From Escherichia phage vB_EcoS_VAH1, in the sequence record MK373792.1: a stretch of DNA of 64,000 bases. One strand, given 5' to 3'. The position numbers and the translations under genes were made by a program. Below the pieces are notes generated by a model that did no database searches, was not told the DNA's origin, and was given only the letters and a program-made list of their open reading frames with translations. Position 1 is the first letter of the stretch; every line of letters begins with the position of its first letter. Shown in pieces: positions 1 through 63,472 of the stretch.

Positions 1-647
1 CTGAGACTGGCAAAGACGTTACCGCTCGCTCTGTTGGCTCTAAGCTGCGTAAAGAAGGTTTCGAAGTACAGAAAGCTAACGAAGTACAGAAATCTCCGTG
101 GACTCCTGAGCAGGAAGCTGAACTGGTTGATTTCCTGAACGCTCATGCTGGTCAGTATACCTATGCTGAAATCGCTGCTGCTGTAGCTGGTGGTCAGTTC
201 GGTGCTAAACAGGTACAGGGTAAGATCCTGAGTCTGGAAATGACCGCTTCTGTTAAACCAACCGAAAAAGCTGCTGCTGTTCGTTCCTTCACTCCGGATG
301 AAGAAACTGATTTTGTTAATCAGGTTGTTGCTGGGGCTACTATTGAAGCTATCGCTGCTCACTTCGGTCGTAATATCAAACAGATCCGTGGTAAAGCTCT
401 GAGTCTGCTTCGTGAAGGTCGTATCGCTGCTATGCCGGTACAGGAAACTTCAAGTGCTAAAACTCGTGAAGATCTGCTAGAAGGTCTGGATCTGGTTAAC
501 ATGACCGTTGCTGAGATCGCTGAGAAAACTGGTAAATCTGAGCGCGGTGTTAAATCTATGCTGTCTCGTCGTGGTCTGGTTGCTAAGGACTATGATGGTG
601 CCGCTAAGCGTGCTAAACTGGATGCAAAAGCTGCGGCTGCTGAATAA
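1..647 (+). CDS. 5'-truncated CDS; protein with three tandem helix-turn-helix-like repeats (putative DNA-binding/transcription factor)
   Basis: Frame open from the window edge to the stop at 645-647. Three ~40-aa repeats of the form TxAEIAxxxG...K.....L. Codon usage is strongly E. coli-optimal. Confidence 0.6.
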   Translation, partial: ETGKDVTARSVGSKLRKEGFEVQKANEVQKSPWTPEQEAELVDFLNAHAGQYTYAEIAAAVAGGQFGAKQVQGKILSLEMTASVKPTEKAAAVRSFTPDEETDFVNQVVAGATIEAIAAHFGRNIKQIRGKALSLLREGRIAAMPVQETSSAKTREDLLEGLDLVNMTVAEIAEKTGKSERGVKSMLSRRGLVAKDYDGAAKRAKLDAKAAAAE

Positions 648-664
648 TCTGGTAAATTAAACCT

Positions 665-698
665 AAGGGGAGGGGGCTATGCTCCTTCCCCTTTTTGC
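665..698 (+). terminator. Rho-independent terminator after the HTH-repeat gene
   Basis: GC-rich imperfect hairpin AAGGGGAGG...CCTTCCCCTT followed by TTTTTGCATTT. Confidence 0.6.
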
Positions 699-729
699 AT
701 TTAGAAGGCACGAAAGCGTGCAAAGGAGA

Positions 730-2202
730 ATGACCTTGTTTAACGTGCAAGCTGTAGTGTTGAAGATGCTTCTAGCTTCCGAACAGAAGCAAATAGCATT
801 GGAAACATTCTCAAAACTGCATAAAGATCATTTTAATGACGCTTTCTCCTCAATTTACCAAGCCGTCCAGAATTATTATAAAAAATATAACACAATGCCG
901 TCCATTGACGCACTTATGCTTGAAGCTAATAGGAACGCCCGCCTTTCTCAAGCTCTAGTCGTCTTAGCTAACACTCAAATTCCAGAAGTGAGCATGGAAC
1001 AGGCACTTGAAGTCCTAGAGGCCGAATATACACAGGATTTATTCCTGAAGCTTCTAGAAACAGACGTGCTTCAAGATTTAACAATGCTGGATCAGGGAGA
1101 AATTCTCAACCGAGTTGCCTCCCTTCACTTAAAATTAGAAGAGAAAGTAACGAATACTGGAAAAGTATTCAACGCAGATAACATGCGTATTTTCCAGAGA
1201 GAAGAAGATACCAAACTGAACTTAATCGCTCTTGGTATTTGTAATGAGTTCGACGCTCAAATCGGTTTAGCTCGCACAGAAACGTTACTGCTTGGTGGTT
1301 GGCGTGGTACTGGTAAATCCATTATCTGTTCAAACATACAGGTTCAGCAATATTTGAATGGGGATATTGCTCCATACTTCTCAATTGAGATGAAAGAACA
1401 TGAAGTATTTAGACGTAATCTAGCCATGTTAGCTGGTGTATCAGCATTAGCAATGCGTAATAATACTCTAGAAGGTGCAGCTCTGTTGAGATTAGCCAGA
1501 ACTAGAGCTAGAATGTTTAATGGTGGTGAAGAGCTTTTCGACAACTTCGTTAAACAGTATACAATGGCTAAGATGAGTGATTTCTACGATATGGAGAGTA
1601 AGCTAATAGAGGGATATGAACTACATACTCCTATGATTATCGTTTATGACCCTGAACTGTCCATTACAACAGTTGACGTAGAATTAAATAAATTAGTTGC
1701 TAGATATGGTGATAAAGTTACAGTAGCTCTACTTGACTATATTAACCAAACCCGACTTCCAGACTCTAAAACCATTGATATGTATGACTGGAAAGAACAG
1801 ATGGTTGTTAGCTCGTCTTTCAAATCTATCTGCCAGAAACATAACGTGGCTGGTGTAGCTCCTTACCAGATCGATCAAGATGGTAGAACACGTATGTCAA
1901 AGGGTATTCTTGATTCCGCAGATATGGCTGCTAATCTTAATGCTGCAAAAGCTGATAATGGTCAAGGTGCTATTATGTTTGACTTCGTTAAGACTCGTTC
2001 TTCTGATAGCGTGAAGTTTATGCCTAAAATGAACTGGGAAACCTTGCGGATGGATAACACTACCAACCTAGCAATGGAAGATATATCTCAAATGGAAGCT
2101 GAGTTCATTATCCCTATTGAGAAGGATAAGCCGGCTCAACCTAAACGTGCTAAGAAAGACAAAACTGAAAATTCAACAGGTGAACAGGCCAGCGATATAT
2201 GA
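730..2202 (+). CDS. DnaB-like replicative DNA helicase
   Basis: Walker A-like GGWRGTGKS and DnaB-like N-terminal domain. The ORF-track start at 679 lies inside the terminator hairpin; ATG at 730 follows the RBS AAGGAGA. Confidence 0.7.
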   Translation: MTLFNVQAVVLKMLLASEQKQIALETFSKLHKDHFNDAFSSIYQAVQNYYKKYNTMPSIDALMLEANRNARLSQALVVLANTQIPEVSMEQALEVLEAEYTQDLFLKLLETDVLQDLTMLDQGEILNRVASLHLKLEEKVTNTGKVFNADNMRIFQREEDTKLNLIALGICNEFDAQIGLARTETLLLGGWRGTGKSIICSNIQVQQYLNGDIAPYFSIEMKEHEVFRRNLAMLAGVSALAMRNNTLEGAALLRLARTRARMFNGGEELFDNFVKQYTMAKMSDFYDMESKLIEGYELHTPMIIVYDPELSITTVDVELNKLVARYGDKVTVALLDYINQTRLPDSKTIDMYDWKEQMVVSSSFKSICQKHNVAGVAPYQIDQDGRTRMSKGILDSADMAANLNAAKADNGQGAIMFDFVKTRSSDSVKFMPKMNWETLRMDNTTNLAMEDISQMEAEFIIPIEKDKPAQPKRAKKDKTENSTGEQASDI

Positions 2203-2732
2203 TAACACAGGAAAGGCTAAAAGAGTTATTTGATTACTCCCCAGGAACTGGGGAGTTTACTAGAAAAGTATCTAGAGGTAATCAGAAAGCTGGTAGTATA
2301 GCTGGTTCTTTAAGAAAAGATGATTATATATGTATATGGGTAGATGGAAAGCCTTACTATGCGCATCAACTAGCTTTTCTCTATATGGAAGGTTATTTAC
2401 CTGAAGAAGTAGACCATATAAACCGTATACGAAGTGATAATCGTTGGGTTAACCTTAAAGATTCTTCTCACCAAGAGAATAGCAGGAATAAAGCAGCTAA
2501 AAGTAAATCAGGGTATATAGGAGTTAGTTGGAATAAACAAAGGCAAAAATGGCAAGTTCAACTAAGAGATACCAATAAAAAGAAAATATTCGGTGGATAT
2601 TTTGAGTACCAGAATTTAGAATCAGCCGTAGATAAGATTAATAAGCTACGATTACAATTTCATGGGGAAAATGCTATTCAAGAAATATTCGACCCGTCTA
2701 ATTATCCTGCATTAGAGGAGATAAATTCATGA
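2199..2732 (+). CDS. HNH homing endonuclease (MITQERLKEL family, AP2-like C-terminal domain)
   Basis: YAHQLAFLYMEGY...VDHINRIRSDNRWVNL HNH motif. Paralog of 9787..10263 and 42044..42541. ATGA start/stop overlap with the upstream gene. Confidence 0.8.
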   Translation: MITQERLKELFDYSPGTGEFTRKVSRGNQKAGSIAGSLRKDDYICIWVDGKPYYAHQLAFLYMEGYLPEEVDHINRIRSDNRWVNLKDSSHQENSRNKAAKSKSGYIGVSWNKQRQKWQVQLRDTNKKKIFGGYFEYQNLESAVDKINKLRLQFHGENAIQEIFDPSNYPALEEINS

Positions 2733-3619
2733 GTAGAATAACAGAATTACTTGATCTTAAGGGAATTGAGTATAAAGATACTGGTGGAGATATTTTAATC
2801 TGTTGCTTAAATCCAGATCATGATGATAAACACCCAAGTTTGCGTATTGATCCTGAAACCGGGATTATGCACTGCTTGAGTTGCGGGTTTGGCAAAGGTA
2901 TACCTAGTATTTATCATTATTTTAATGAGACTCAATATAGACAATCTCCAAGACTATCCCAAGTACGTAAAAAGATTTCAGAGATTAGAAATGGATCTAC
3001 GAATCTTGCAATCCCAGAATCTGCCTGCCTTTTCGAAGGTGATTTCCGAGGTATCAGTTCTAAGACCTTGAAGAAATATTTTGCTTTCCAACATCAAGAG
3101 AACTGGGAAGGCAGAATTGTATTCCCAATCACAGATGCTGTTGGACGCAATATCCTATTTTTGGGTCGTTCTATAAACAGTTCTGCCCCTCCTAAATACT
3201 TAGTAAAACCAAAACAAGTTTCACCACCGATTTTCCCTGTACGATATAATACTCCAGTTCTTGTTCTAGTTGAAGGTATCTTTGATATGCTGAACCTAGA
3301 GGATAATGGTATAGACTATGCTTCTTGCTGCTTTGGTACACATCAGTTTACCTCGGATAACATTGCAGATAAGTTCAGTCCGTATATTATTGCTGGTGTT
3401 AAAGTTGTTGTTATCTTACTAGATAATGATGCTTCTGGTAATAAAGCCGCACAAGCACTGGCTAAGCTAATTCGTACAAAAACGCGTTTAACACCTGTAG
3501 TTGCTAACTTTCTTCTGCCTGAAGGTAAAGACCCAGGTGACTTAAATAAAGAAGAAATTGATATGTTAGCAAAACGTATTGAAATTTTAGTTGCTGAATC
3601 GCTTAAAGATTTGGTATAA
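2729..3619 (+). CDS. DNA primase (zinc ribbon plus Toprim)
   Basis: CCLNPDHDDKHPSLRID...CLSCGFGKG zinc-binding motif; Toprim-like VLVEGIFDM and ILLDNDASGNKAA. Confidence 0.8.
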   Translation: MSRITELLDLKGIEYKDTGGDILICCLNPDHDDKHPSLRIDPETGIMHCLSCGFGKGIPSIYHYFNETQYRQSPRLSQVRKKISEIRNGSTNLAIPESACLFEGDFRGISSKTLKKYFAFQHQENWEGRIVFPITDAVGRNILFLGRSINSSAPPKYLVKPKQVSPPIFPVRYNTPVLVLVEGIFDMLNLEDNGIDYASCCFGTHQFTSDNIADKFSPYIIAGVKVVVILLDNDASGNKAAQALAKLIRTKTRLTPVVANFLLPEGKDPGDLNKEEIDMLAKRIEILVAESLKDLV

Positions 3620-3645
3620 TAGTCCTAAATAACTGAGGAGCTACT

Positions 3646-3975
3646 ATGGAATATGTATATATTTATGCGGATGTTCCAGTGTATGATAGTATAACACACA
3701 AAGAGGTTAAACTAGAGCGGTTTACAACACTGGAGTCCCTTAATAAACGAAAGAATTTCCATTTATTTGGTGATCCTAAATTACCTGCATCTTATATTTA
3801 CTTTAAAGTAAAAGATACAGGTCAAGAGGTATACCTAACATATGATTGGGCTGTTGTAGAAAATACTGAGCAATCTATGAAAGCGCTAGATGCTTTTCTG
3901 CGTATAGATGAAGAATTTCGGGTACTAGAAAAGCAGCGCAATGAAATGCGTAAATTACTACATACCTATAAATAG
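3646..3975 (+). CDS. hypothetical protein
   Basis: ORF with RBS GAGGAG upstream, embedded in a plus-strand operon. Confidence 0.5.
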   Translation: MEYVYIYADVPVYDSITHKEVKLERFTTLESLNKRKNFHLFGDPKLPASYIYFKVKDTGQEVYLTYDWAVVENTEQSMKALDAFLRIDEEFRVLEKQRNEMRKLLHTYK

Positions 3976-3978
3976 TAT

Positions 3979-4007
3979 TTGCTATTATCCCAATATTTTG
4001 ATATAAT
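3979..4007 (+). promoter_or_regulatory. sigma70-type early promoter upstream of the DNA polymerase gene
   Basis: TTGCTA (3979-3984), 17-bp spacer, TATAAT (4002-4007), in an AT-rich context. Confidence 0.5.
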
Positions 4008-4068
4008 ATATTGGTAAGTTAGAGAAGAAACACTGAAGTTATACTTACTTACCAAGAGGAGATTAAAT

Positions 4069-6636
4069 TTGAAAATCGCAGTAGTTGATAAAGCTCTAAA
4101 TAACACTCGTTATGATAAACATTTCCAGCTATACGGCGAGGAAGTTGATGTATTCCATATGTGTAACGAGAAGTTGTCCGGTCGTTTGCTCAAAAAGCAT
4201 ATTACTATAGGGACTCCGGAAAACCCATTTGACCCGAATGATTATGATTTTGTTATACTGGTAGGTGCCGAACCTTTCCTGTACTTTGCAGGTAAGAAAG
4301 GTATTGGTGATTATACTGGTAAACGTGTAGAGTATAATGGATATGCTAACTGGATTGCGAGTATCAGCCCAGCCCAGTTACACTTTAAACCTGAAATGAA
4401 ACCAGTTTTTGATGCAACAGTAGAGAATATCCACGATATTATCAATGGTCGTGAGAAGATTGCAAAAGCTGGTGATTACCGTCCTATTACTGACCCTGAT
4501 GAGGCAGAAGAATATATCAAGATGGTGTATAATATGGTTATCGGACCTGTCGCATTCGACTCCGAAACCTCAGCACTATACTGTCGAGATGGTTATCTAC
4601 TTGGTGTTTCTATATCTCACCAAGAGTATCAGGGTGTATATATCGATTCTGATTGCCTCACAGAGGTTGCAGTATATTACCTCCAGAAAATCCTGGATAG
4701 TGAAAACCACACTATTGTTTTTCACAACTTGAAGTTTGATATGCACTTTTATAAGTACCATCTGGGACTTACTTTTGATAAAGCACATAAAGAACGCAGG
4801 CTCCATGATACCATGTTGCAGCACTATGTTCTAGATGAACGTCGTGGTACTCATGGCTTGAAATCTCTAGCAATGAAGTATACCGATATGGGTGACTATG
4901 ACTTTGAACTAGATAAGTTCAAAGATGATTACTGCAAAGCACATAAAATCAAGAAAGAAGATTTCACCTATGATTTAATTCCGTTTGATATTATGTGGCC
5001 TTACGCTGCGAAAGATACAGATGCCACCATACGTTTGCACAACTTCTTCTTACCAAAGATTGAGAAGAATGAAAAACTTTGCAGTCTGTATTACGATGTT
5101 TTGATGCCTGGTTGCGTATTCTTGCAACGTGTTGAAGATCGTGGTGTACCTATTTCTATCGATCGTTTAAAAGAAGCTCAGTATCAGTTAACCCATAATC
5201 TGAATAAAGCCCGTGAGAAACTGTACACTTATCCAGAAGTTAAACAGCTAGAACAAGATCAGAATGAAGCGTTTAACCCGAACTCTGTTAAGCAGCTGCG
5301 CGTTCTTCTGTTTGATTACGTTGGCTTAACTCCAACAGGTAAACTGACGGATACTGGAGCAGATTCTACAGATGCAGAAGCTCTGAATGAGCTGGCTACG
5401 CAGCATCCAATTGCTAAAACTCTACTAGAGATTCGTAAGCTGACTAAGCTGATCTCTACTTATGTTGAGAAGATTCTACTGAGTATTGATGCAGATGGTT
5501 GCATTCGTACTGGTTTCCATGAACATATGACTACTTCTGGTCGTCTGAGTTCTTCTGGTAAACTGAACCTGCAACAGCTACCTCGTGATGAATCTATTAT
5601 CAAGGGTTGTGTAGTTGCACCACCTGGATACCGTGTAATCGCGTGGGACTTAACAACTGCGGAAGTTTACTATGCTGCTGTTCTATCTGGGGATAGAAAT
5701 ATGCAACAGGTATTTATCAACATGAGAAATGAACCCGATAAATACCCAGACTTCCACTCTAACATCGCCCACATGGTATTTAAATTGCAATGTGAACCTC
5801 GTGATGTTAAGAAGCTGTTCCCAGCTCTACGTCAGGCAGCTAAGGCAATTACCTTTGGTATTTTGTATGGTTCTGGCCCGGCTAAAGTAGCACATTCTGT
5901 TAACGAAGCATTGCTCGAACAAGCAGCCAAAACTGGGGAACCGTTTGTTGAATGTACTGTTGCAGATGCTAAAGAGTACATTGAGACTTACTTTGGTCAA
6001 TTCCCACAGCTTAAGCGTTGGATTGATAAGTGCCACGATCAGATCAAGAATCATGGATTTATCTATAGTCACTTTGGTCGTAAACGTCGTCTGCATAATA
6101 TCCATTCCGAAGACCGTGGTGTTCAGGGTGAAGAAATTCGTTCTGGATTTAACGCAATCATTCAGTCTGCTTCTTCTGATAGTCTCCTTTTAGGTGCTGT
6201 AGATGCAGATAATGAGATCATTTCTCTTGGTTTAGAACAAGAGATGAAGATTGTTATGTTGGTTCATGACTCCGTAGTTGCTATTGTTCGTGAGGATTTG
6301 ATCGACCAATACAATGAAATCCTGATTCGTAATATTCAGAAAGACCGTGGTATCAGTATTCCTGGCTGTCCGATTGGTATTGATTCAGATTCTGAAGCCG
6401 GGGGTTCTCGTGACTATTCTTGTGGTAAGATGAAGAAACAGCACCCATCAATTGCTTGTATTGATGATGATGAATATACTCGTTACGTTAAAGAAATGCT
6501 ACTTGATGCAGATTTCGAGTATAAGAAACTAGCTGCGATGGATAAAGAGCATCCAGACCACAGCAAGTACAAGGATGATAAGTTTATTGCTGTATGTAAA
6601 GATCTGGATAACGTGAAAAGGATTCTCGGTGCTTAA
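4069..6636 (+). CDS. DNA polymerase, family A, with 3'-5' exonuclease domain (T5 DNA polymerase-like)
   Basis: 855 aa; TTG start after RBS AAGAGGA. Exonuclease motif FDSETSAL; polymerase motif B RQAAKAITFGILYGSG; motif C LVHDSV. Confidence 0.95.
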   Translation: MKIAVVDKALNNTRYDKHFQLYGEEVDVFHMCNEKLSGRLLKKHITIGTPENPFDPNDYDFVILVGAEPFLYFAGKKGIGDYTGKRVEYNGYANWIASISPAQLHFKPEMKPVFDATVENIHDIINGREKIAKAGDYRPITDPDEAEEYIKMVYNMVIGPVAFDSETSALYCRDGYLLGVSISHQEYQGVYIDSDCLTEVAVYYLQKILDSENHTIVFHNLKFDMHFYKYHLGLTFDKAHKERRLHDTMLQHYVLDERRGTHGLKSLAMKYTDMGDYDFELDKFKDDYCKAHKIKKEDFTYDLIPFDIMWPYAAKDTDATIRLHNFFLPKIEKNEKLCSLYYDVLMPGCVFLQRVEDRGVPISIDRLKEAQYQLTHNLNKAREKLYTYPEVKQLEQDQNEAFNPNSVKQLRVLLFDYVGLTPTGKLTDTGADSTDAEALNELATQHPIAKTLLEIRKLTKLISTYVEKILLSIDADGCIRTGFHEHMTTSGRLSSSGKLNLQQLPRDESIIKGCVVAPPGYRVIAWDLTTAEVYYAAVLSGDRNMQQVFINMRNEPDKYPDFHSNIAHMVFKLQCEPRDVKKLFPALRQAAKAITFGILYGSGPAKVAHSVNEALLEQAAKTGEPFVECTVADAKEYIETYFGQFPQLKRWIDKCHDQIKNHGFIYSHFGRKRRLHNIHSEDRGVQGEEIRSGFNAIIQSASSDSLLLGAVDADNEIISLGLEQEMKIVMLVHDSVVAIVREDLIDQYNEILIRNIQKDRGISIPGCPIGIDSDSEAGGSRDYSCGKMKKQHPSIACIDDDEYTRYVKEMLLDADFEYKKLAAMDKEHPDHSKYKDDKFIAVCKDLDNVKRILGA

Positions 6637-7126
6637 TTTCAAATTGCCCGTATATGCTTTACGGGCATTTGTATCAATTGAGCAAGAAGGTGATTATTCC
6701 GTAATTACAACAAGATATAATAAATATGTGCTAGATAACAGGAAGTTGCCTGGTACTTTTTCTCAACGTAGGCTTATTCTATTTGAGAAACGGAAAGAAT
6801 TACCATACAAGCTCTATCCTATTAGAGGTAGAATATCAATGTTGTCTCAATTAGTTGGGTCAAAGCGTAGCCAATTTATAGATTCTGATGGAAATCTTAT
6901 TAACTGGAAGAAAACTACGTTCTATGATGTTGTCACCTCTAAAGTTTTGCATTCAGCTAGAATTTATAACGGAAAATACCAATGCTATGTAGCTAAAGTT
7001 CCATATCCATTTGTATTATCCTATGTTCCAGCTTATATAAGCTATATTCTGGTAAATAATAGCCCTGTTATTTATCAAGTCCATCAAGAGGAGCCTGAAA
7101 TTCCTAGACTTAGAATAAAATTATGA
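6629..7126 (+). CDS. hypothetical protein
   Basis: ORF overlapping the polymerase stop; no recognisable motifs. Confidence 0.4.
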   Translation: MLNFKLPVYALRAFVSIEQEGDYSVITTRYNKYVLDNRKLPGTFSQRRLILFEKRKELPYKLYPIRGRISMLSQLVGSKRSQFIDSDGNLINWKKTTFYDVVTSKVLHSARIYNGKYQCYVAKVPYPFVLSYVPAYISYILVNNSPVIYQVHQEEPEIPRLRIKL

Positions 7127-7275
7127 AGGTTGTTATATCTAATAAAGCCTATTTCAAGCCCGATGATGAACTTTGGGATTATTGTAGTAAGCAAACCACT
7201 TATCACATAGAGACAATGACTAGTAAATACCCTATTATGTATAAGAATAGTGGTGTTGTTGCCCAAAGAGATTAA
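7123..7275 (+). CDS. N-terminal fragment of SF2 DNA helicase (frame 1 of 3)
   Basis: ATG at 7123; 50 codons ending just inside the start of the next helicase ORF in another frame. Confidence 0.4.
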   Translation: MKVVISNKAYFKPDDELWDYCSKQTTYHIETMTSKYPIMYKNSGVVAQRD

Positions 7276-7702
7276 GTGGATTCCTATTACGCGTCTGGAC
7301 TTATTAGATGCTAAAGGAATAAAATACGAATTAGTCGATAAACGCACATTAGCTCCAGTAGATATACCAAAACCTGAGTTCAAGCTGCGTGAAGAAGACC
7401 AGCTCCCAATATATAAAGAGTGTGATGATACCTGTATTATTAATGGTAAGCCTGGATTTGGTAAAACTATCCTAGCCCTTGCACTTGCGTATAAATTTGG
7501 CCAGAAAACTTTGGTAATCTGTACAAATACATCCATACGTGAAATGTGGGCGGCAGAAGTTCGTAAATGGTTTGGGTTTGAACCAGGCATCATAGGTTCT
7601 GGGAAGTACAATATTGATCCACCAATTGTAGTCAGCAATATTCAAACAGTAAATAAACATGCGAATAATCTTTCTAAAGTATTCGGTACTGTTTATAGTT
7701 GA
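7250..7702 (+). CDS. SF2 ATP-dependent DNA helicase, Walker A segment (frameshifted gene)
   Basis: Walker A GKPGFGKT. Ends ...KVFGTVYS* immediately before the helicase motif II in the next frame. Confidence 0.7.
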   Translation: MVLLPKEIKWIPITRLDLLDAKGIKYELVDKRTLAPVDIPKPEFKLREEDQLPIYKECDDTCIINGKPGFGKTILALALAYKFGQKTLVICTNTSIREMWAAEVRKWFGFEPGIIGSGKYNIDPPIVVSNIQTVNKHANNLSKVFGTVYS

Positions 7703-8477
7703 TGAAGTTCACCATTGTGTGGCTACAACTTTCACTAATTTCCTAGAAATATCATGTGCTCGCTATAAAATTGGACTATCCGGTACACTAAAACGAAAAG
7801 ATGGTTTACAAGTTATGTTCAAAGATTTCTTTGGATATAAGATATTTAGCCCGCCGGTTAATAATACTGTTGCACCTACAATCCATAGGTACTCCGTGCC
7901 TGTTGAGCTATCAGGAAACCAAAACGTGCCGTGGGCATTACGTGCTAACGATGTGTATAATCATCCTGAATATCGAGAGACTATTATAAACCTAGCACAT
8001 TTATATGTGAATATGGGGCATAAAGTACTCATTGTAAGTGATAGAACAGAGTTAATCCAAACAGTACTAGAAGCTCTTACGCAGCGGGGTGTTACAACAT
8101 ATGAAATTATAGGGGCAACCCACTTAGATGACCGATTAAAAATTCAGGAAGATATAGCAAAAGGTGGGCCTTGTGTACTTGCAGCAGCTCAAAGTATCTT
8201 CTCTGAAGGTATTTCTCTTAATGAGCTATCTTGTTTAATAATGGGAAGCCTCATTAATAATGAATCTCTCATTGAACAGCTTGCAGGCCGTGTTCAACGT
8301 ATTGTCGATGGTAAACTCGACCCTATTGTTGTAGATCTAATTATGAAAGGTGGCACTGGACTAAGACAGGCTTCTGGACGTATGGCAGTATATCGTAACA
8401 ACGGGTGGAAAACTATTACTATGACCCCGGAGAAAGCAGTTCAATTAGCTAAAATTGCATTTGGCAACAGCTCATAA
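7659..8477 (+). CDS. SF2 ATP-dependent DNA helicase, DExH and C-terminal domain (frameshifted gene)
   Basis: LFIVDEVHH (motif II), LSGTLKRKDG, and C-terminal helicase domain with QLAGRVQR. Confidence 0.7.
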   Translation: MRIIFLKYSVLFIVDEVHHCVATTFTNFLEISCARYKIGLSGTLKRKDGLQVMFKDFFGYKIFSPPVNNTVAPTIHRYSVPVELSGNQNVPWALRANDVYNHPEYRETIINLAHLYVNMGHKVLIVSDRTELIQTVLEALTQRGVTTYEIIGATHLDDRLKIQEDIAKGGPCVLAAAQSIFSEGISLNELSCLIMGSLINNESLIEQLAGRVQRIVDGKLDPIVVDLIMKGGTGLRQASGRMAVYRNNGWKTITMTPEKAVQLAKIAFGNSS

Positions 8478-8489
8478 ATGATGTATAAT
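8461..8489 (+). promoter_or_regulatory. sigma70-like promoter P1 (TTGGCA-17-TATAAT)
   Basis: TTGGCA at 8461-8466, TATAAT at 8484-8489. Shares the 20-mer GTATAATATATACATAAATT with P2. Confidence 0.4.
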
Positions 8490-8562
8490 ATATACATAAA
8501 TTTGAGAGAGAGAAAGTTTCGGATTGATAAGAAAGTCCGAAGCAGAAAAATAAAAATTTTAG

Positions 8563-8592
8563 TTGCTAAATTCTCTCGAAATCTAGTATAAT
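8563..8592 (+). promoter_or_regulatory. sigma70-like promoter P2 (TTGCTA-18-TATAAT)
   Basis: TTGCTA at 8563-8568, TATAAT at 8587-8592. Second copy of the 20-mer containing the -10 element. Confidence 0.4.
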
Positions 8593-8976
8593 ATATACAT
8601 AAATTCGAGGAGAAAACAAAAATTAAATTCTTCGATTATGAAAAGCTATACTTACTAGCTAGAGGAAATTCCGACTTAATTATTAAGTTATTCAAAAGAA
8701 TGCTTACAGAGCCTGATGCTCACCAATTATTGGTCGGTTCCTCATTCATTTTGAATGAATCAACAATAGTTGATAATCAAAATAAATTGTCTAATAGACA
8801 ACTGGCAGAATATCTAGGAATTTTAAGTCTACGAAATTATGCCGAATACAAGTTTACAAACGATCCTAGTTTGGACATACAATATGTTCCAGTATGGATA
8901 CCTCGTTTAGTAATCGACACTAACCCACTAATCGCAATTAACAAATCGAAATTAATCTTTAAAGAGGAAATAAAAT

Positions 8977-9750
8977 ATGGCTAAGTCTTGGGGCGAAACT
9001 ACTGGCGGTTCTAACGATAAAATCGAATTCCTGAAGTTCAACAACGGTATCACTCATGTTCGTATCGTTTCTGGTGTTCTTCCACGTTATGTCTACTGGC
9101 TGACTAATAAAGAGGGTAGCGTAGCTCCTTTCGAATGTCTCCGTTTTAACCGTGACAAAGAGAGCTTTGTTCGTGGTAAAGCTGATCCGGTTCATGAGAT
9201 GGGCTTCTTTGAGAAAGAGCTGGATAAAGATGGTAATCGCGTTCCGCTGAAACCGAAGAAAAACTATATCGCTTTTGTTATCGACCGTTCTGATAACAAA
9301 CTGAAAGTAATGGAAGTCAAAGCTACTATTCTGAAAGGCATCCAGTCTATCATGAAGCAGTTGAGTCTGGCAACTCCGTTTGATATTGATATTTCTATCG
9401 AGAAAAAAGGTAAAGGTTTCGATACTGAGTATGATGTACAGCAGATTGCTGCTATGCAATTCCAGATTAAGCTGCAAGATCCTAACAGTGCAGAATCTAA
9501 GCAATATGCTGCGGATGTAGATCTGATTGGTGAAGCTATGTGTGATGAAGATGGCGACATCATTAAGTTCGAGAAAGTTCCTTCTCTGGAGCAAACCTAT
9601 CCGGTTCCTACCTATGAAGAGCAGAAAGAAGCAATTCAAGCCTTCATGGAAGGTCGTGAGAATAAAGATGATGATGCCAAATCTGGTAACAGCAATGCTG
9701 GTTCCCAGAAAGGTATTGACCAAGAAGCTGCAAGCGATCTGGATGACTAA
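8977..9750 (+). CDS. putative ssDNA-binding/DNA-binding protein with acidic C-terminal tail
   Basis: Strong RBS AAAGAGGAAA; highly optimal codon usage; acidic C-terminus ...QEAASDLDD; followed by a terminator. Confidence 0.55.
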   Translation: MAKSWGETTGGSNDKIEFLKFNNGITHVRIVSGVLPRYVYWLTNKEGSVAPFECLRFNRDKESFVRGKADPVHEMGFFEKELDKDGNRVPLKPKKNYIAFVIDRSDNKLKVMEVKATILKGIQSIMKQLSLATPFDIDISIEKKGKGFDTEYDVQQIAAMQFQIKLQDPNSAESKQYAADVDLIGEAMCDEDGDIIKFEKVPSLEQTYPVPTYEEQKEAIQAFMEGRENKDDDAKSGNSNAGSQKGIDQEAASDLDD

Positions 9751-9755
9751 TAAAT

Positions 9756-9782
9756 AGAGGGGCTTCGGCCCCTTTCTTTTTA
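9756..9782 (+). terminator. Rho-independent terminator
   Basis: AGGGGC-TTCG-GCCCCT hairpin followed by TTCTTTTT. Confidence 0.7.
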
Positions 9783-9786
9783 ACCA

Positions 9787-10263
9787 ATGATTACACAAGA
9801 GCGATTAAAAGAGCTGTTAGATTATAATCCTGAGACTGGAGTATTTACCTGGAAAGTATCTCGTGGTAGAGTTTCAAAAGGATCTGTAGCTGGAACAGCA
9901 GTATCAGTAGGGAATAGGTACACCCGCTGGGAGATTCGAGTTGAAGGAAAAAGATATAAGGCGCATCAGTTAGCATTTCTATACGTTCATGGTTATATTC
10001 CACCTGAGATTGATCATGAAGATAGGAATCCATTGAATAATGCAATACTTAACCTAATAGACTCTTCAAAGTCTCGTAATCAATTAAATAAGAATAAAAA
10101 CTTCGGTAAAGAAACACCAAAAGGAGTCTTTGTAAAAGCCTCTACTGGAAGATACTTCGTACAGATTCAAGGAAAGCACTACGGCTACTTTGATGACGTA
10201 GAACAGGCCAGAACTGTTGCTAATGAGGTATATGATAGGTTGTTAAATGAGAATACTGTTTAG
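9787..10263 (+). CDS. HNH homing endonuclease (MITQERLKEL family)
   Basis: N-terminus MITQERLKELLDYNPETGVFTWKVSRG; HNH motif YKAHQLAFLYVHGYIPPEIDHEDRNPLNN. Confidence 0.8.
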   Translation: MITQERLKELLDYNPETGVFTWKVSRGRVSKGSVAGTAVSVGNRYTRWEIRVEGKRYKAHQLAFLYVHGYIPPEIDHEDRNPLNNAILNLIDSSKSRNQLNKNKNFGKETPKGVFVKASTGRYFVQIQGKHYGYFDDVEQARTVANEVYDRLLNENTV

Positions 10264-11224
10264 TGCTGATCACCATATCAAGCTAGGGCAGGATAAGGTA
10301 CCTAAAGAGTTTCAGAAGCGTCGCTTCCTGATGCTAGGAGAACGGTTAAATGATATATTCCATAATCATAACTGTGATCTTCATATTGCTGGTGGTGATA
10401 TACTTGATGTTGCCGACCCGTCGTCAGAAGAAATAGAACTGCTTGAACAGTTCATGTCAAGACTTGACCATCCAGGCAAAATCTTTACTGGAAATCATGA
10501 AATGTTAACTAAAACCATTTCATGTCTATACCATTATGCGGGAGTTATTAATAAAGTAACTAGTGGGAAGTGGGAAGTAATTACCAAACCATATCGTTCC
10601 CCTGAATTTGATATTGTTCCGTATGATGAGATTCATAAACCCAAGTGGAAACCTGCTGAATCAAAACTATGTTTCACGCATGTTCGTGGTGAAATCCCTC
10701 CACATGTAAAACCAGAAATTGATCTAACTAAGTACAACTGTTATGATACTGTAATTGCTGGCGATTTACATTCTTATACTAATAGCCAGACTATCGGGTC
10801 TACTAGACTCCTTTACCCAGGGTCTCCATTAACTACATCGTTCCATAGAGAACGCACAAAAGGTACAAATGGTTGCTTTATCATTGATACCGACACATTA
10901 AAAGTAGAATGGATTGAACTAGGTGATTTACCACAACTGATTCGTAAAACAATCGGAGCTGGGGAAGAGATGGAACCTAGTGATTATGATCGTGTAGTCT
11001 ACGAAGTTACTGGTGACGTTGTTCAATTAAAGTCTATCAAAGACTCTGATTTATTAGATAAGAAGATTAACCATCGAGTTACTAAAGATGCTAAGTTAAA
11101 TCTTGTTGATCTTGATATGTTGGGCGAACTTGAACTTTACTTCCGTGAAGTCGAGAAGCTATCTCAAGGCGACATTGATAGAATCTTGGCTAGAGCTGCG
11201 AAATATGTCAAAGATTACAATTAA
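10247..11224 (+). CDS. SbcD/Mre11-like recombination nuclease (metallophosphoesterase)
   Basis: Phosphoesterase motifs SADHH, GGDILD, GNHE, GDLH. Confidence 0.85.
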   Translation: MRILFSADHHIKLGQDKVPKEFQKRRFLMLGERLNDIFHNHNCDLHIAGGDILDVADPSSEEIELLEQFMSRLDHPGKIFTGNHEMLTKTISCLYHYAGVINKVTSGKWEVITKPYRSPEFDIVPYDEIHKPKWKPAESKLCFTHVRGEIPPHVKPEIDLTKYNCYDTVIAGDLHSYTNSQTIGSTRLLYPGSPLTTSFHRERTKGTNGCFIIDTDTLKVEWIELGDLPQLIRKTIGAGEEMEPSDYDRVVYEVTGDVVQLKSIKDSDLLDKKINHRVTKDAKLNLVDLDMLGELELYFREVEKLSQGDIDRILARAAKYVKDYN

Positions 11225-18595: not shown

Positions 18596-20698
18596 TTACC
18601 TTATATGGATATACCCGTTTTGCAGGTCTATCTTCATTTTGTAAGATCCCTCTGGATTAGAGGATAGTGCTGCTGCACGATCATATATAATATTTACACC
18701 AATTTGTGATAAGAAAGCATTATTAGCAACAATTTTACTAGCAGTTACCGTACCATTAACTATCATATCACCATGTAAAACCATTGCAGGGCTAGCCCAT
18801 GCTGAACCATTCCACTGCCTAGTAAACGCTGTTCCTGGTGCTCCACTTTTATACTCGGTTAATACATCATATTTAACAGGGCCAGTACCAAAGTTAGATG
18901 TAAAGAATGAATTAGCTTGTGAATCATTCCATGCTGTTAAATTAGCGATAGCAAGAGAATACATTCCAGGACCACGTTGTCCTGTATCTCCTGGCCTGCC
19001 ATCGGCACCTGGTTTACCGTCTGCTCCAGGCCTACCATCAACACCTTCTGTACCGCTCCATTGAACCACGTCTGACCAACTAGTTCCAGATACTAACTGA
19101 TTAGTAACAGGGTCTAAAGTACCTGTAGAACAGTAAATATTTTGAGTATTAGATGTTCTATTGGGTGGAGTCTTTGACCAACCTGAAGGTGGGTATGCAG
19201 GGCTTGTAGGTTTAGCAGGTAGTGAGGTTCCTAGAATATAGATAAATACTGTTTGCTTGCCCTGTATACCTGTCTGTATATCAATATCACCATTTGGTGT
19301 ACCAATTACAACCCCGCTAGAAATCCTTAATGTATCTCCATCATAACGTATATACTGAGTAGCATTACCAATATCTAGTTTTGGTTTAGCAGTAGCATTA
19401 TCCATGCCCATCCAGATACCAGATTTTGTATCGCCCCAAGTTTTACCCTGAGTATAGATTGCTGGGTTATCTTGACCGGTTAAATTAGTCATGACAAAGT
19501 TAGCAGCGTTAATAGTTTTAGTTATTACACTTCCATCAACGTTAACTATCTTTTTAATAGGGTCGAAAGATATTGGTGCTTTTCCTTCAGCATCTAGAAG
19601 ACCTATATTAATAGCACCGGTGGAGGCATCTATTAGGAAGGTTTGTTTCCAGGTAGATCCATCTTTAATTTTACCCTTAATGTACGCATAATTTACTTCG
19701 ATACCAGTTTCATTAACAAAACTATTGTCTAACGGTGTGCTCTCATTTAATATAAATGTCTGTACTGCGGAATCAGTAACATCTTGAGCGCCTGGTCCCC
19801 AGGCAATAGATGACACTTTAAATTTATGCTCTACTTTCCATGGGAATGATATAATTGTTGCCGACTGAGCAGCCCCCACGTTGATTTTTTGTGCTTTAGT
19901 CCATCCAGTTCTTGCAAACTCTGCCGAATCTATATAAGATAGAACGAACTCACGAACATTAGCACCTGCACCTCTATTCCAATCCCATTGTACACGCAAG
20001 TCATAGCGTTCTTTACCATCTGCAATACGCGCTGCTTTAAATTCAATATTAATAGGTGCAGTAGGGGGAACAAAATTATACTTAACTTCAAAAACAGTGG
20101 GATACTCATAGTATCCAGATGAATCAATAGTAACACCGTCTGGTAGGCTTATTTGACCAGAAATTCTTACTTTATAGAACCCGATTGGCACACCACCAAA
20201 CATAATAGTTGGCATTAGTGCACCAACGTAATATTTAACCCATGGATTATTGGCATTAGAATTATTTTTTAATTCTATAGTGCAATAATCGGCCTCCCCT
20301 GTAGTATCTATATAAACTATTGGTGCTCCAACACCAACATCTACTAGTTCTGACTCGCATCTAGCACCCATGATTTTGGGTGCTGATTTCATTTTAAAGG
20401 TTTGCTTATCAGATAGGTTAATTCCTATCTGTGCATTAAGGAGTTCAGAGTCTATTATGGAATCATAAAATGCACCCTGAACTTCATAAGTTGTTGTAGG
20501 TTTTAGATTATTAATAGTTACAGAGAAAGTATCAACACCCGTGAAGTCTCTACGAGTAATATTACTACCTTCCTTTAGCCAAAAAGATCTGCCTATAACG
20601 TCATAATCTGAGTAAATAGAATGCTGGATATACGCCAACGTATACCCAGTTAAGACGCTATTTAGGACCATTTTAGCTGGTGCATTATTTGAAATCAT
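18596..20698 (-). CDS. baseplate/central fibre protein with short collagen-like segment
   Basis: 700 aa; G-X-Y run [27 protein letters not shown]; position in the tail module. Confidence 0.6.
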
Positions 20699-33040: not shown

Positions 33041-34417
33041 TTAAACGGAAGCGTAAGCACCAGATACAACGCCATTATTAAAGTAACGTTGCAGGTTAAC
33101 ACGCTGAGTAACGTAGTATGCGTCACGCTGTTTACCAGCTTGGCGCTCACGTTCAACAGTAACAGCACGCTGACGTGGCATTACGAAGTTATCTTTATAA
33201 ACAATAACTGCGAACTCTTTATCAGCCGCTTTAGCTGGGAAGTACTCAGAAACTACAACCGGCAGACCGTAAATACGACCAACTTGACCTTGCAGTTTAA
33301 CAGCATCATTACCAACCTGGGAAACATCCTGCCATTCTTCATCTTCCAGCAGATCGTAGTAAGCATCCATAGATACAATCAGTACCAGTTTGCTTAGCTT
33401 CAGACCATGACGGCCCAGTTTACGACGCAGTTTAGAGATAGTTTTAGCAGTTACCAGAACAGAACCATCAGCTTTAGCTTCGGTAGTAACTTTAGCACTA
33501 TCTTCACTAGCAAGAGTCAGCAGACCTTTCGGTTTACCAGAACCATCACCAGTCATGAAAGCTTCTTCGATAGAAACAGCATGTGCTTCAATCAGACGCT
33601 TACGCAGCAGCGGCAGCAGGGAGAAGATTGCATCTTCTTCAGTTTCATCAGTAATAAAGGACTTAGCAGCCAGTTTATAGGTCTTAAACTGGATTTCTTT
33701 AAGAGCGCCTTTAACTTCGTTACCAGTAGTTGTATCATTACCATAAGTAGAAGCATCTACCCAAGTAGCTTTACCAGCTTCTGGTTCAACCAGCATAGTA
33801 AGAATCTTACTGGACATCGGCAGTTCTTCGAACAGTGCACCAACTACCAGCTCTTTCTGCAGGTCACGAATGATACGCTGAGAGAAGATAGTTTCATAGC
33901 TTTCACTAGAAACTTCTACAGAAGAAGAGTTATTTACTGCCTTAAGATGATTCTGACCGTGTTCGGTTTCGAATACACCTTTTTCCATTACGTAAGACAA
34001 CAGAACCAGTTTTTCTACTTCATCTTCAAAGTTTTCCTGAGTACCATACAGTGCTTTAGCTACGCTATCACCGACGAAGGAACGACCTTCACGAGCTGTC
34101 AGCAGGGATTTGATTTCATCCTGAAGACCAACAATAGTTTCCTGCTGTTTTTCTACGGTTTGTGCAAACAGTTCTGCACTCTTCTTAGATTTCTCATCCA
34201 GCGACTTAACCAGTTCCAGAGCCTCTTCCAGACGCTTACGGTCTTCGCCAACTGCTTTAGAAACCAGGTCATTCATACGAGCCAGTTCTTTTTCTTCCTG
34301 CTCTTTACGCATACGTTCAGCTTCCTGAGCTTTCTGAGCAGCGGTCAGACCTTCCAGAGATTTAGCCAGATCACCCAGACCAAGTTCTTCTTTCAGCTTA
34401 TTAATATCAATAGTCAT
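33041..34417 (-). CDS. major capsid protein (HK97-fold)
   Basis: 458 aa; follows the protease gene, followed by a strong terminator; optimal codon usage; N-terminal coiled-coil scaffold-like delta domain. Confidence 0.9.
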   Translation of the reverse strand: MTIDINKLKEELGLGDLAKSLEGLTAAQKAQEAERMRKEQEEKELARMNDLVSKAVGEDRKRLEEALELVKSLDEKSKKSAELFAQTVEKQQETIVGLQDEIKSLLTAREGRSFVGDSVAKALYGTQENFEDEVEKLVLLSYVMEKGVFETEHGQNHLKAVNNSSSVEVSSESYETIFSQRIIRDLQKELVVGALFEELPMSSKILTMLVEPEAGKATWVDASTYGNDTTTGNEVKGALKEIQFKTYKLAAKSFITDETEEDAIFSLLPLLRKRLIEAHAVSIEEAFMTGDGSGKPKGLLTLASEDSAKVTTEAKADGSVLVTAKTISKLRRKLGRHGLKLSKLVLIVSMDAYYDLLEDEEWQDVSQVGNDAVKLQGQVGRIYGLPVVVSEYFPAKAADKEFAVIVYKDNFVMPRQRAVTVERERQAGKQRDAYYVTQRVNLQRYFNNGVVSGAYASV

Positions 34418-46011: not shown

Positions 46012-46428
46012 TTATTCACCTGCGGCCTGTTTTACTTCATCGGCAACGCCCAATAGTTGCGCCACGGCGTCCAGCGTTTCCAATTTTGCGCTTTCCAGTG
46101 ATGCCAGATCGTCAGCGTCTTTGATAATGCCGGAATCGATGGCATGTTTTGCAATGACGCGTACATAATGCGCCTTGCGAATTGAACTGCCGCCGCCAAC
46201 TTTGCGCGGCTTATCGCTTTTCTGATACGCTTTTGCGCTGGTCAATTTTGAGCGAACAGACACGGGAGAAGCCGCGCCAACTGTTTTTGCAATCTCTTTC
46301 AGGCCGTCGCTGTTAGCGAACTCCAAGCCGTTTTCATTGATGAGCTGTTGATACATGGTAACAGCCTGTTGGGTGTTTTCTTCATTCCATGCGAATTTTG
46401 CGGATTTTTCGGTTTTAACGTTAGCCAT
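46012..46428 (-). CDS. hypothetical pre-early protein
   Basis: 138-aa ORF with RBS GGAG; preceded by an operator-like palindrome. Confidence 0.5.
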   Translation of the reverse strand: MANVKTEKSAKFAWNEENTQQAVTMYQQLINENGLEFANSDGLKEIAKTVGAASPVSVRSKLTSAKAYQKSDKPRKVGGGSSIRKAHYVRVIAKHAIDSGIIKDADDLASLESAKLETLDAVAQLLGVADEVKQAAGE

Positions 46429-50326: not shown

Positions 50327-50539
50327 ATGATTCGTAACGTTTCCCTTGCCCGTTCCAAAGGCTTTAAGCTGGTGGACGTTAACACGTTCGAACGGGAAGA
50401 CTGTAAAATCGAATATATAGCACGGAATAAAAACGCCTTTCGTGTTACAGAAAAGAAATTTGATAAGCGTGGCAACGTGATAGCTGAAAAGGTTAAATAT
50501 TTTGCCACCTTTTACGCTGCATTTCGTGGGGTACTATGA
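50327..50539 (+). CDS. hypothetical small protein
   Basis: 70-aa ORF tightly packed after the previous gene. Confidence 0.45.
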   Translation: MIRNVSLARSKGFKLVDVNTFEREDCKIEYIARNKNAFRVTEKKFDKRGNVIAEKVKYFATFYAAFRGVL

Positions 50540-59374: not shown

Positions 59375-59471
59375 TTTTAGTCATGTTTTCCATTAGAATT
59401 TCCTCTCTCATTAATTTATGAACTTATTATACAGAATTTTAAGGCTTAAAGCAACTGAATTTTTTAATTAC

Positions 59472-63397: not shown

Positions 63398-63472
63398 AAT
63401 ATATACCTCTCTTAACTAATTTATGTATATATTATATAATAACTAGGGCTAAAAGTCAACTACTTTTTTATC

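Follow-up and report, generated by a model that had tools for sequence, protein, structure and literature searches.

Why do two genes of an early phage replication module carry the codon signature of strongly expressed host genes, when their neighbors do not? The question is raised by the first 9,750 positions of a 64,000-nucleotide stretch of Escherichia phage vB_EcoS_VAH1 (record MK373792.1; in the following "the window" for the whole stretch), and the two genes are D5 and D11. The region 1..9750 represents the early replication module of a T5-like phage. A search with the first 10.3 kb retrieved 465 phage records, 424 of them with at least 80% query cover, and the best matches are the Escherichia phages slur09, DaisyDussoix, and T5 (94-97% identity). 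The gene order is the same as in T5 (AY543070) and DaisyDussoix, namely, ligA, ligB, D5, D6 (DnaB-like helicase), HNH endonuclease, primase, DNA polymerase, T5.123, D10 helicase, T5.125, D11, and D12/D13 nuclease, with ligB located just outside the window. D5, D11, their functions, promoters, and terminator have all been annotated before, and host-like codon use of strongly expressed phage genes is established. The answer that emerges from our analysis is that the host-like codons of D5 and D11 very probably reflect selection for the translation of DNA-coating proteins that are made in very large amounts.

3..647, + strand: gene D5 (orthologue of T5.118), codons 42-255 and stop, double-stranded DNA (dsDNA)-binding protein; the first 41 codons lie outside the window
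8977..9750, + strand: gene D11 (orthologue of T5.126), predicted gp32-like single-stranded DNA (ssDNA)-binding protein of 257 amino acids, with its own Shine-Dalgarno sequence AAGAGGA at 8962..8968

Host-like codon usage of D5 and D11

The codon adaptation index (CAI) was calculated with the E. coli weights of Sharp & Li (1987), which were not recomputed from a host genome, and the 81 non-overlapping open reading frames (ORFs) of the window served as background. D5 exhibits the highest CAI of the window (0.717) and D11 reaches 0.549, compared with a mean of 0.257 for the 81 ORFs (median 0.234, standard deviation [sd] 0.104). The only other window gene in this range encodes the major head protein (33041..34417, - strand; 0.651). 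Both genes are far above the background, as documented by a resampling test in which the protein sequence was kept fixed and synonymous codons were redrawn from the window background; the resampled CAI was 0.29 for D5 (sd 0.026; z = 16.7) and 0.28 for D11 (sd 0.022; z = 11.9).

According to the original prediction, which was made from the sequence alone, both genes use E. coli major codons almost exclusively. This is an apt description of D5, where 13 of the 15 Leu codons are CTG, 10 of the 12 Arg codons CGT, 14 of the 17 Gly codons GGT, and 32 of the 35 Ala codons GCT, and where ATA, AGA, AGG, GGA, ACA, and CAA are completely missing in the window fragment. It applies only moderately to D11, whose bias is clear but less pure (GAA 11/22, ATT 9/18, CAA 6/13). 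The first gene had been given as an ORF at 1..647; this codon-biased frame is cut by the window edge and corresponds to D5 codons 42-255 read from position 3. The full-length D5 of T5 has a CAI of 0.695.

A principal component analysis (PCA) of the relative synonymous codon usage, which requires no host reference, is in accordance with the CAI. The first component explains 25% of the variance and correlates with CAI (rho 0.83), and its three extreme points are D5, D11, and the capsid gene. The G+C content of D5 (0.48) and D11 (0.42) compares with 0.33-0.40 in the neighboring genes, and the G+C content at third codon positions (GC3) is 0.33 and 0.39, respectively. The low GC3 identifies the pattern as the signature of strongly expressed enterobacterial genes, i.e., T-ending codons (GCT, GGT, CGT, GTT) plus CTG, and not as a general G+C shift.

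Phage tRNAs, the rest of the genome, and relatives

The anticodons of the T5 transfer RNAs (tRNAs) match the A-ending codons CTA, GGA, ACA, TCA, CCA, ATA, CAA, and probably AGA. Codons of this type make up 3.3% of D5, 6.6% of D11, and 5.4% of the capsid gene, compared with a median of 26.5% for the genes of the window. Positions 1..67400 of T5, which are not covered by the window, were scored separately, and the highest CAI values were found for D3 (0.560), T5.089 (0.495), and A2 (0.453). Since nothing in this region exceeds 0.56, no gene of the whole genome type is more host-adapted than D5, and D11 takes the third or fourth rank. Among the papers searched, none names D5 the most codon-adapted gene of T5, which is a detail rather than a new kind of feature, and none provided anything relevant on T5 codon usage or on the transcriptome of T5 infection.

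The pre-early gene A2 (window 46012..46428, - strand; CAI 0.44) and the early gene D3 (T5 64174..64584, outside the window) both match PHROG 1725 "DNA binding protein". The two are apparently paralogues and, after D5, rank among the most codon-adapted non-structural genes; given their PHROG assignment, the top non-structural genes by CAI are all DNA binders.

The bias is also present in Klebsiella phage vB_Kpn_B01 (Sugarlandvirus; ~67% DNA identity), with CAI values of 0.732 for D5 and 0.668 for D11. The other replication genes from the ligase to the dUTPase range from 0.19 to 0.42 in this phage, and the D3-like gene upstream reaches 0.59. At conserved residues the window and vB_Kpn_B01 use the same codon in 69% of the cases in D5 and 59% in D11, compared with 36-56% in nine other genes. 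This elevated codon identity is the mark expected of sustained selection on synonymous sites.

Operon layout of the D5 and D11 units

8461..8489, + strand: predicted promoter P31A, TTGGCA-17-TATAAT, 11/12 consensus; the -35 hexamer overlaps the 3' end of D10
8563..8592, + strand: predicted promoter P31B, TTGCTA-18-TATAAT, 10/12 consensus
8516..8543, + strand: leader hairpin between P31A and P31B without T-run (-14.0 kcal/mol, z -5.9); sequence conserved in vB_Kpn_B01
8622..8984, + strand: T5.125 orthologue, CAI 0.15; annotated start ATG 8700 (94 amino acids), Shine-Dalgarno sequence GAGGAG at 8607..8612
9756..9775, + strand: intrinsic terminator after D11, end of the T5.125-D11 operon; 8-bp GC-rich stem, UUCG loop, CUUUUU tail, -13.6 kcal/mol
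665..693, + strand: intrinsic terminator after D5, end of the ligB-D5 unit; 13-bp stem and T-run, -22.9 kcal/mol (0/200 shuffles fold as well)

Tandem promoters with a duplicated 20-mer had been proposed for D11. Both sites fall within the annotated promoters P31A and P31B of T5 (AY543070), in a region that is 99% identical to T5, and they are predicted to act as these early sigma-70 promoters; vB_Kpn_B01 exhibits three promoter-like sites at the same position. They are located 375-490 nt upstream of D11 with T5.125 in between, and would drive a two-gene operon T5.125-D11 and not D11 by itself. The exact 20-mer GTATAATATATACATAAATT is indeed common to P31A (8483..8502) and P31B (8586..8605), but it largely represents the T5 early-promoter consensus. 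Nineteen of its 20 bases (TATAATATATACATAAATT) recur exactly a third time at 63418..63436 (- strand), and four more copies with two to three mismatches are located at 18686, 40940, and 48380 (+ strand) and at 59413 (- strand), compared with 0.18 expected by chance. TATAATATATACATAAATT is a -10-plus-downstream block that is conserved among T5 promoters and not a duplication confined to D11, and a similar block is present in the T5 promoter P-K28a.

The last 8 nt of T5.125 overlap the start of D11 (ATGGCTAA), and the D5 unit of T5 is laid out in the same way: tandem promoters P-K28b and P-K28a, ligB (CAI 0.24), an 8-nt overlap (ATGTCTAA), D5, and a terminator. ligB, one of the split NAD-ligase genes, is present ahead of D5 in T5, DaisyDussoix, vB_Kpn_B01, and one environmental contig, and D5 is followed in the window by the gene of the DnaB-like helicase D6 (679..2202, + strand). 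The strong terminator anticipated after D11 was confirmed and is annotated at the equivalent position in T5 and Stitch; an even stronger one follows D5.

The hairpin in the leader of the P31A transcript may be an mRNA-stabilizing or processing element. A (GA)n run at ~8505 has one extra GA in the window. The annotated ATG of D6 (679) sits in the loop of the terminator hairpin at 665..693; D6 is either translated from read-through transcripts with a partly sequestered start, or its true start is located in frame downstream (GTG 718, ATG 730).

The D5 protein

The two proteins had been supposed to bind DNA, and sequence and PHROG matches support this, the two genes being the D5 and D11 of a T5-like phage. 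The 214 D5 residues of the window are identical to residues 42-255 of T5 D5 (T5.118; PHROG 323), so that this is the same gene with nothing substantive different, and a database protein with 99% identity differs by a single exchange (K vs Q). Full-length T5 D5 matches phrog_323 "transcriptional regulator, D5-like" (E 1.2e-71). The database search retrieved 725 homologues, one of which is found on environmental contigs within the same module (PC4-ligA-ligB-D5-DnaB-primase-polymerase). On the basis of the older T5 literature, we take D5 to be a cooperative, non-sequence-specific dsDNA binder and not a site-specific factor. The T5 annotation (AY543070) describes it as a DNA-binding protein needed for replication and late transcription. 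In a study on the T5-like phage phiR2-01 (PMC8624392), D5 is one of seven "major" proteins of virion preparations with a spectral count >100, and the only one of the seven without a known structural role.

The AlphaFold model of full-length D5 is locally confident (predicted local distance difference test [pLDDT] 86), and its modules are not packed together (predicted template modeling score [pTM] 0.39). It comprises four helical modules (helices 11-58, 76-118, 139-178, and 210-231) and a C-terminal helix. The window holds the tail of module 1, three complete predicted helix-turn-helix (HTH) modules, and the C-terminal helix:

96..242, + strand: repeat 2 (residues ~73-121), three-helix Myb/homeodomain-like HTH starting with WTPEQE (helices 76-88, 95-101, 109-118); sub-threshold Myb_DNA-binding match
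285..434, + strand: repeat 3 (residues ~136-185), three-helix HTH starting with FTPDEE (helices 139-150, 155-162, 166-178)
462..584, + strand: repeat 4 (residues ~195-235), sigma-70 region-4-like HTH (helices 210-217, 221-231); Sigma70_r4_2 match
597..641, + strand: basic, Ala-rich C-terminal helix (residues 240-254 of the model)

The three tandem HTH-like repeats that had been recognized from the sequence are thus correct for the part inside the window, but both the model and the hhalign comparison of the modules indicate four in the full-length protein. Repeats 2 and 3 align with 96% probability (E 1.7e-9), four of the five other pairs with 52-78%, and repeats 2 and 4 with 4%. Module 4 is the only one above a curated cut-off (Sigma70_r4_2, 30.3 bits, cut-off 25.7), with matches in 27 of 31 family members. 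The homeodomain-like and Myb matches of modules 1-3 all stay below theirs, as exemplified by HTH_23 on repeat 3 (22.1 bits for the window fragment and 21.8 for full-length T5 D5; cut-off 24.6). Successive modules exhibit the weak matches to Myb, homeodomain-like, and sigma-70 region-4 domains. Predicted three-helix HTH modules with linkers are shared with c-Myb R1R2R3, the bipartite domains of Tc3 and paired, and sigma-70 regions 3-4, but D5 has four modules plus the C-terminal helix. For the whole chain there is no matching solved structure (best Foldseek E 0.02), and the weak Foldseek matches, among them the Tc3 bipartite domain, are exclusively to HTH proteins. Single-sequence and profile searches of PDB sequences provided nothing useful for D5, and NCBIfam holds no model for D5, D11, or T5.125.

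The D5 gene also contains one of three Chi octamers (GCTGGTGG) on the + strand of the window (186..193, 10388..10395, and 50368..50375; 0.77 expected). The excess is marginal, as 3 of 100 shuffles reach three copies, and the octamer in D5 is built of the optimal codons GCT GGT GG(T), so it may be a by-product of codon choice.

The D11 protein

D11 matches PHROG 1607 "single strand DNA binding protein" (E 7e-106), and its model (pLDDT 79, pTM 0.75) exhibits a beta-rich core; the N-terminus is disordered, and so is the linker ahead of an acidic tip. Residues 228-257 have a pLDDT <50, and the tip EAASDLDD is conserved with E250 and L255 being invariant among 25 aligned family members. Two hallmarks of gp32, the OB-fold core and the flexible acidic C-terminal tail, are recognizable in D11. 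D11 itself has no Pfam match and therefore does not reach the gathering threshold of the gp32 family PF08804, which is reached only through two or three distant relatives; the homologue P0037 (E 2e-12 to D11) scores 26.9 bits at a cut-off of 26.8, and P0036 scores 19.8. The gp32 proteins of T4 and RB69 harbor a KRKST motif and a His-Cys3 zinc subdomain; the conserved N-terminus of D11 reads MAKSWG instead, and the zinc site is absent, since C54 is the only invariant Cys in the 25 aligned family members. The search of PDB sequences with the family profile had no match, that with the single sequence provided nothing useful, and Foldseek found nothing significant. We regard D11 as a predicted gp32-type ssDNA-binding protein with putative cooperative binding.

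A 2026 preprint takes T5 D11 as the phage single-stranded DNA-binding protein (SSB) with an OB fold, presents an AlphaFold model, and groups it with the DARNA-activating phage SSBs; in the passages considered, cloning is listed only for T4 gp32 and T7 gp2.5 (bioRxiv 10.64898/2026.02.22.705581). A paper dealing with both the DRT4 defense system and a phage DNA-binding protein turned out to concern T5 ORF55, not D5 or D11.

In 2013, the PC4-like protein T5.115 (PDB 4bg7) was reportedly put forward as the replicative SSB of T5, and it appears as the T5 SSB in later papers. T5.125 and D14 were considered as candidates for this published protein and rejected, as it is T5.115, which is located outside the window. 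T5.115 likewise has an ssDNA-binding fold and is encoded in the early module as well, where ligA and ligB separate it from D5 downstream. Its CAI is ordinary (0.247 in T5, AY543070 64968..65276, and 0.150 in an environmental relative) compared with 0.55 for D11. By the codon criterion it is D11, not T5.115, that behaves like an abundantly made SSB, which bears on the older proposal for the replicative SSB of T5.

Probable selection for abundant DNA-coating proteins

With four predicted HTH modules for dsDNA in D5 and a gp32-type OB fold and a disordered acidic tail for ssDNA in D11, both proteins would act by coating DNA and not by catalysis. DNA-coating proteins are needed in stoichiometric amounts, which would select for fast and efficient translation and hence for the codons of the most abundant host tRNAs; D5 and D11 would accordingly have lost nearly all of the A-ending codons that are common in the rest of the genome and decoded by phage tRNAs. 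The cassette is of the same type for both genes. Two tandem, predicted strong sigma-70 early promoters precede a small or low-expression first cistron, followed by the putative high-expression cistron, which has its own Shine-Dalgarno sequence and an 8-nt overlap between its ATG and the stop of the preceding gene. The strong intrinsic terminator at the end would shield the downstream enzyme genes.

Several points weigh against this explanation. The first cistrons ligB (CAI 0.24) and T5.125 (0.15) are located on the same transcripts and yet have low CAI values; transcript level alone is therefore no explanation, and the difference in output would have to arise at translation. The D5 homologue on a 32%-GC environmental T5-like contig has a CAI of only 0.28 on the E. 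coli scale, compared with 0.14-0.25 for its neighbors; a weak E. coli bias is expected if the bias tracks the host but does not confirm that it does. The CAI weights are literature values and were not derived from a host genome, nevertheless the reference-free PCA agrees. Finally, published proteomics supports a high protein output for D5 only, and the abundance of D11 is deduced solely from codon bias and function.

An alternative explanation is timing instead of amount, i.e., D5 and D11 would have to be translated right at the onset of the early phase, when the phage tRNAs have not yet accumulated. It would account for the near absence of the A-ending codons of the T5 tRNAs (3-7% compared with a median of 26.5%). 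However, ligB and T5.125, immediately upstream on the same transcripts, use the bulk phage codons, and the late major capsid gene has a D5-like bias (CAI 0.65, 5% phage-tRNA-type codons), so that the common property is abundance; we consider the timing scenario improbable. Far less plausible still is a recent horizontal acquisition of D5 and D11 from an enterobacterial genome. Their G+C content is higher than that of their neighbors, but GC3 is just 0.33 and 0.39, and the signature is that of strongly expressed and not of average E. coli genes. Homologues with a named source are phage proteins, the only environmental homologue for which the gene context was read sits in a T5-like replication module of the same order, and the bias is shared with a phage of only ~67% DNA identity.

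It is hardly conceivable that amino-acid composition, short length, or chance produced the pattern. Ala does account for 35 of the 214 residues of D5, a very high share, and the ORF is cut by the window edge, but CAI is normalized within each amino acid, the maximum in 2000 trials of the fixed-protein resampling was 0.385 compared with 0.717 for D5, the full-length gene of T5 is equally biased (0.695), and CAI and reference-free PCA agree. Selection for the translation of abundant DNA-coating proteins is thus the explanation that we retain.

Further features of the replication module

T5.125, the first cistron ahead of D11, probably starts with the non-canonical ATT 8622, which would extend the predicted protein to 120 amino acids. 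This codon is located nine nt past the Shine-Dalgarno sequence GAGGAG (8607..8612), and the phrog_4258 profile starts 26 positions upstream of the annotated start. The 26 codons upstream of ATG 8700 are open and conserved at the protein level, with nine synonymous and four conservative changes compared to Stitch. The orthologues of Stitch (120 amino acids) and the Klebsiella phage (117 amino acids) have an ATG at the codon equivalent to 8622, and IMG/VR contigs with the same context show ATT in 19 and ATG in six cases. An ATT start, if true, would fit the low output of the cistron ahead of D11.

The gene of the D10 helicase (7123..8477, + strand) is split into three ORFs by two single-base insertions compared with T5 and DaisyDussoix. 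A C-run and a T-run (~7262 and ~7692) are each longer by one base, which reflects homopolymer sequencing errors or else a true pseudogene. Two paralogous HNH_3 endonuclease genes (9787..10263 and 2199..2732, both + strand) share 54% identity over 102 residues and the N-terminus MITQERLKEL. The former starts 12 nt past the D11 terminator, and its presence in slur09 and absence from T5 and DaisyDussoix make it look like a homing-endonuclease insertion. The ORF at 3646..3975 is present in DaisyDussoix and absent from T5.

Implications for T5-like phages

Host-adapted codons in strongly expressed phage genes have been described for T7, T4, and capsid genes generally. The most biased genes are likewise the major capsid protein and stoichiometric DNA-binding proteins here, but unlike in the known cases an early gene, D5, exceeds the capsid gene, and the bias is the inverse of the codon set read by the phage's own tRNAs. 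Beyond confirmation the finding is of little importance, as it reflects ordinary and well-understood phage biology. Codon bias alone nevertheless picks out the stoichiometric DNA-binding proteins of a T5-like phage together with its capsid protein, and such genes avoid the codons of the phage tRNAs.

A more far-reaching interpretation, which we put forward tentatively and with some doubt, is that D5 is a phage "chromatin" protein and D11 the stoichiometric replicative SSB, both belonging to a DNA-coating set written in host-major codons. Given the highest CAI in the genome and its rank as a major protein in phiR2-01 virion preparations, D5 may consist of four loosely tethered HTH beads that polymerize on dsDNA in capsid-protein-like amounts, a structurally undescribed type. 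If this is true, coating by D5 would occlude early promoters and thereby bring about the early-to-late switch, the zinc-less gp32-like D11 and not the PC4-like protein would be the replicative SSB of T5-like phages, and D5, D11, D3, and A2 would represent a small DNA-coating set in host-major codons whose synthesis is independent of the phage tRNAs. The D5 family is large (>700 homologues) and has no close relative of solved structure, and its predicted four-HTH architecture would be a reasonable structural target for understanding the early-to-late switch of T5.

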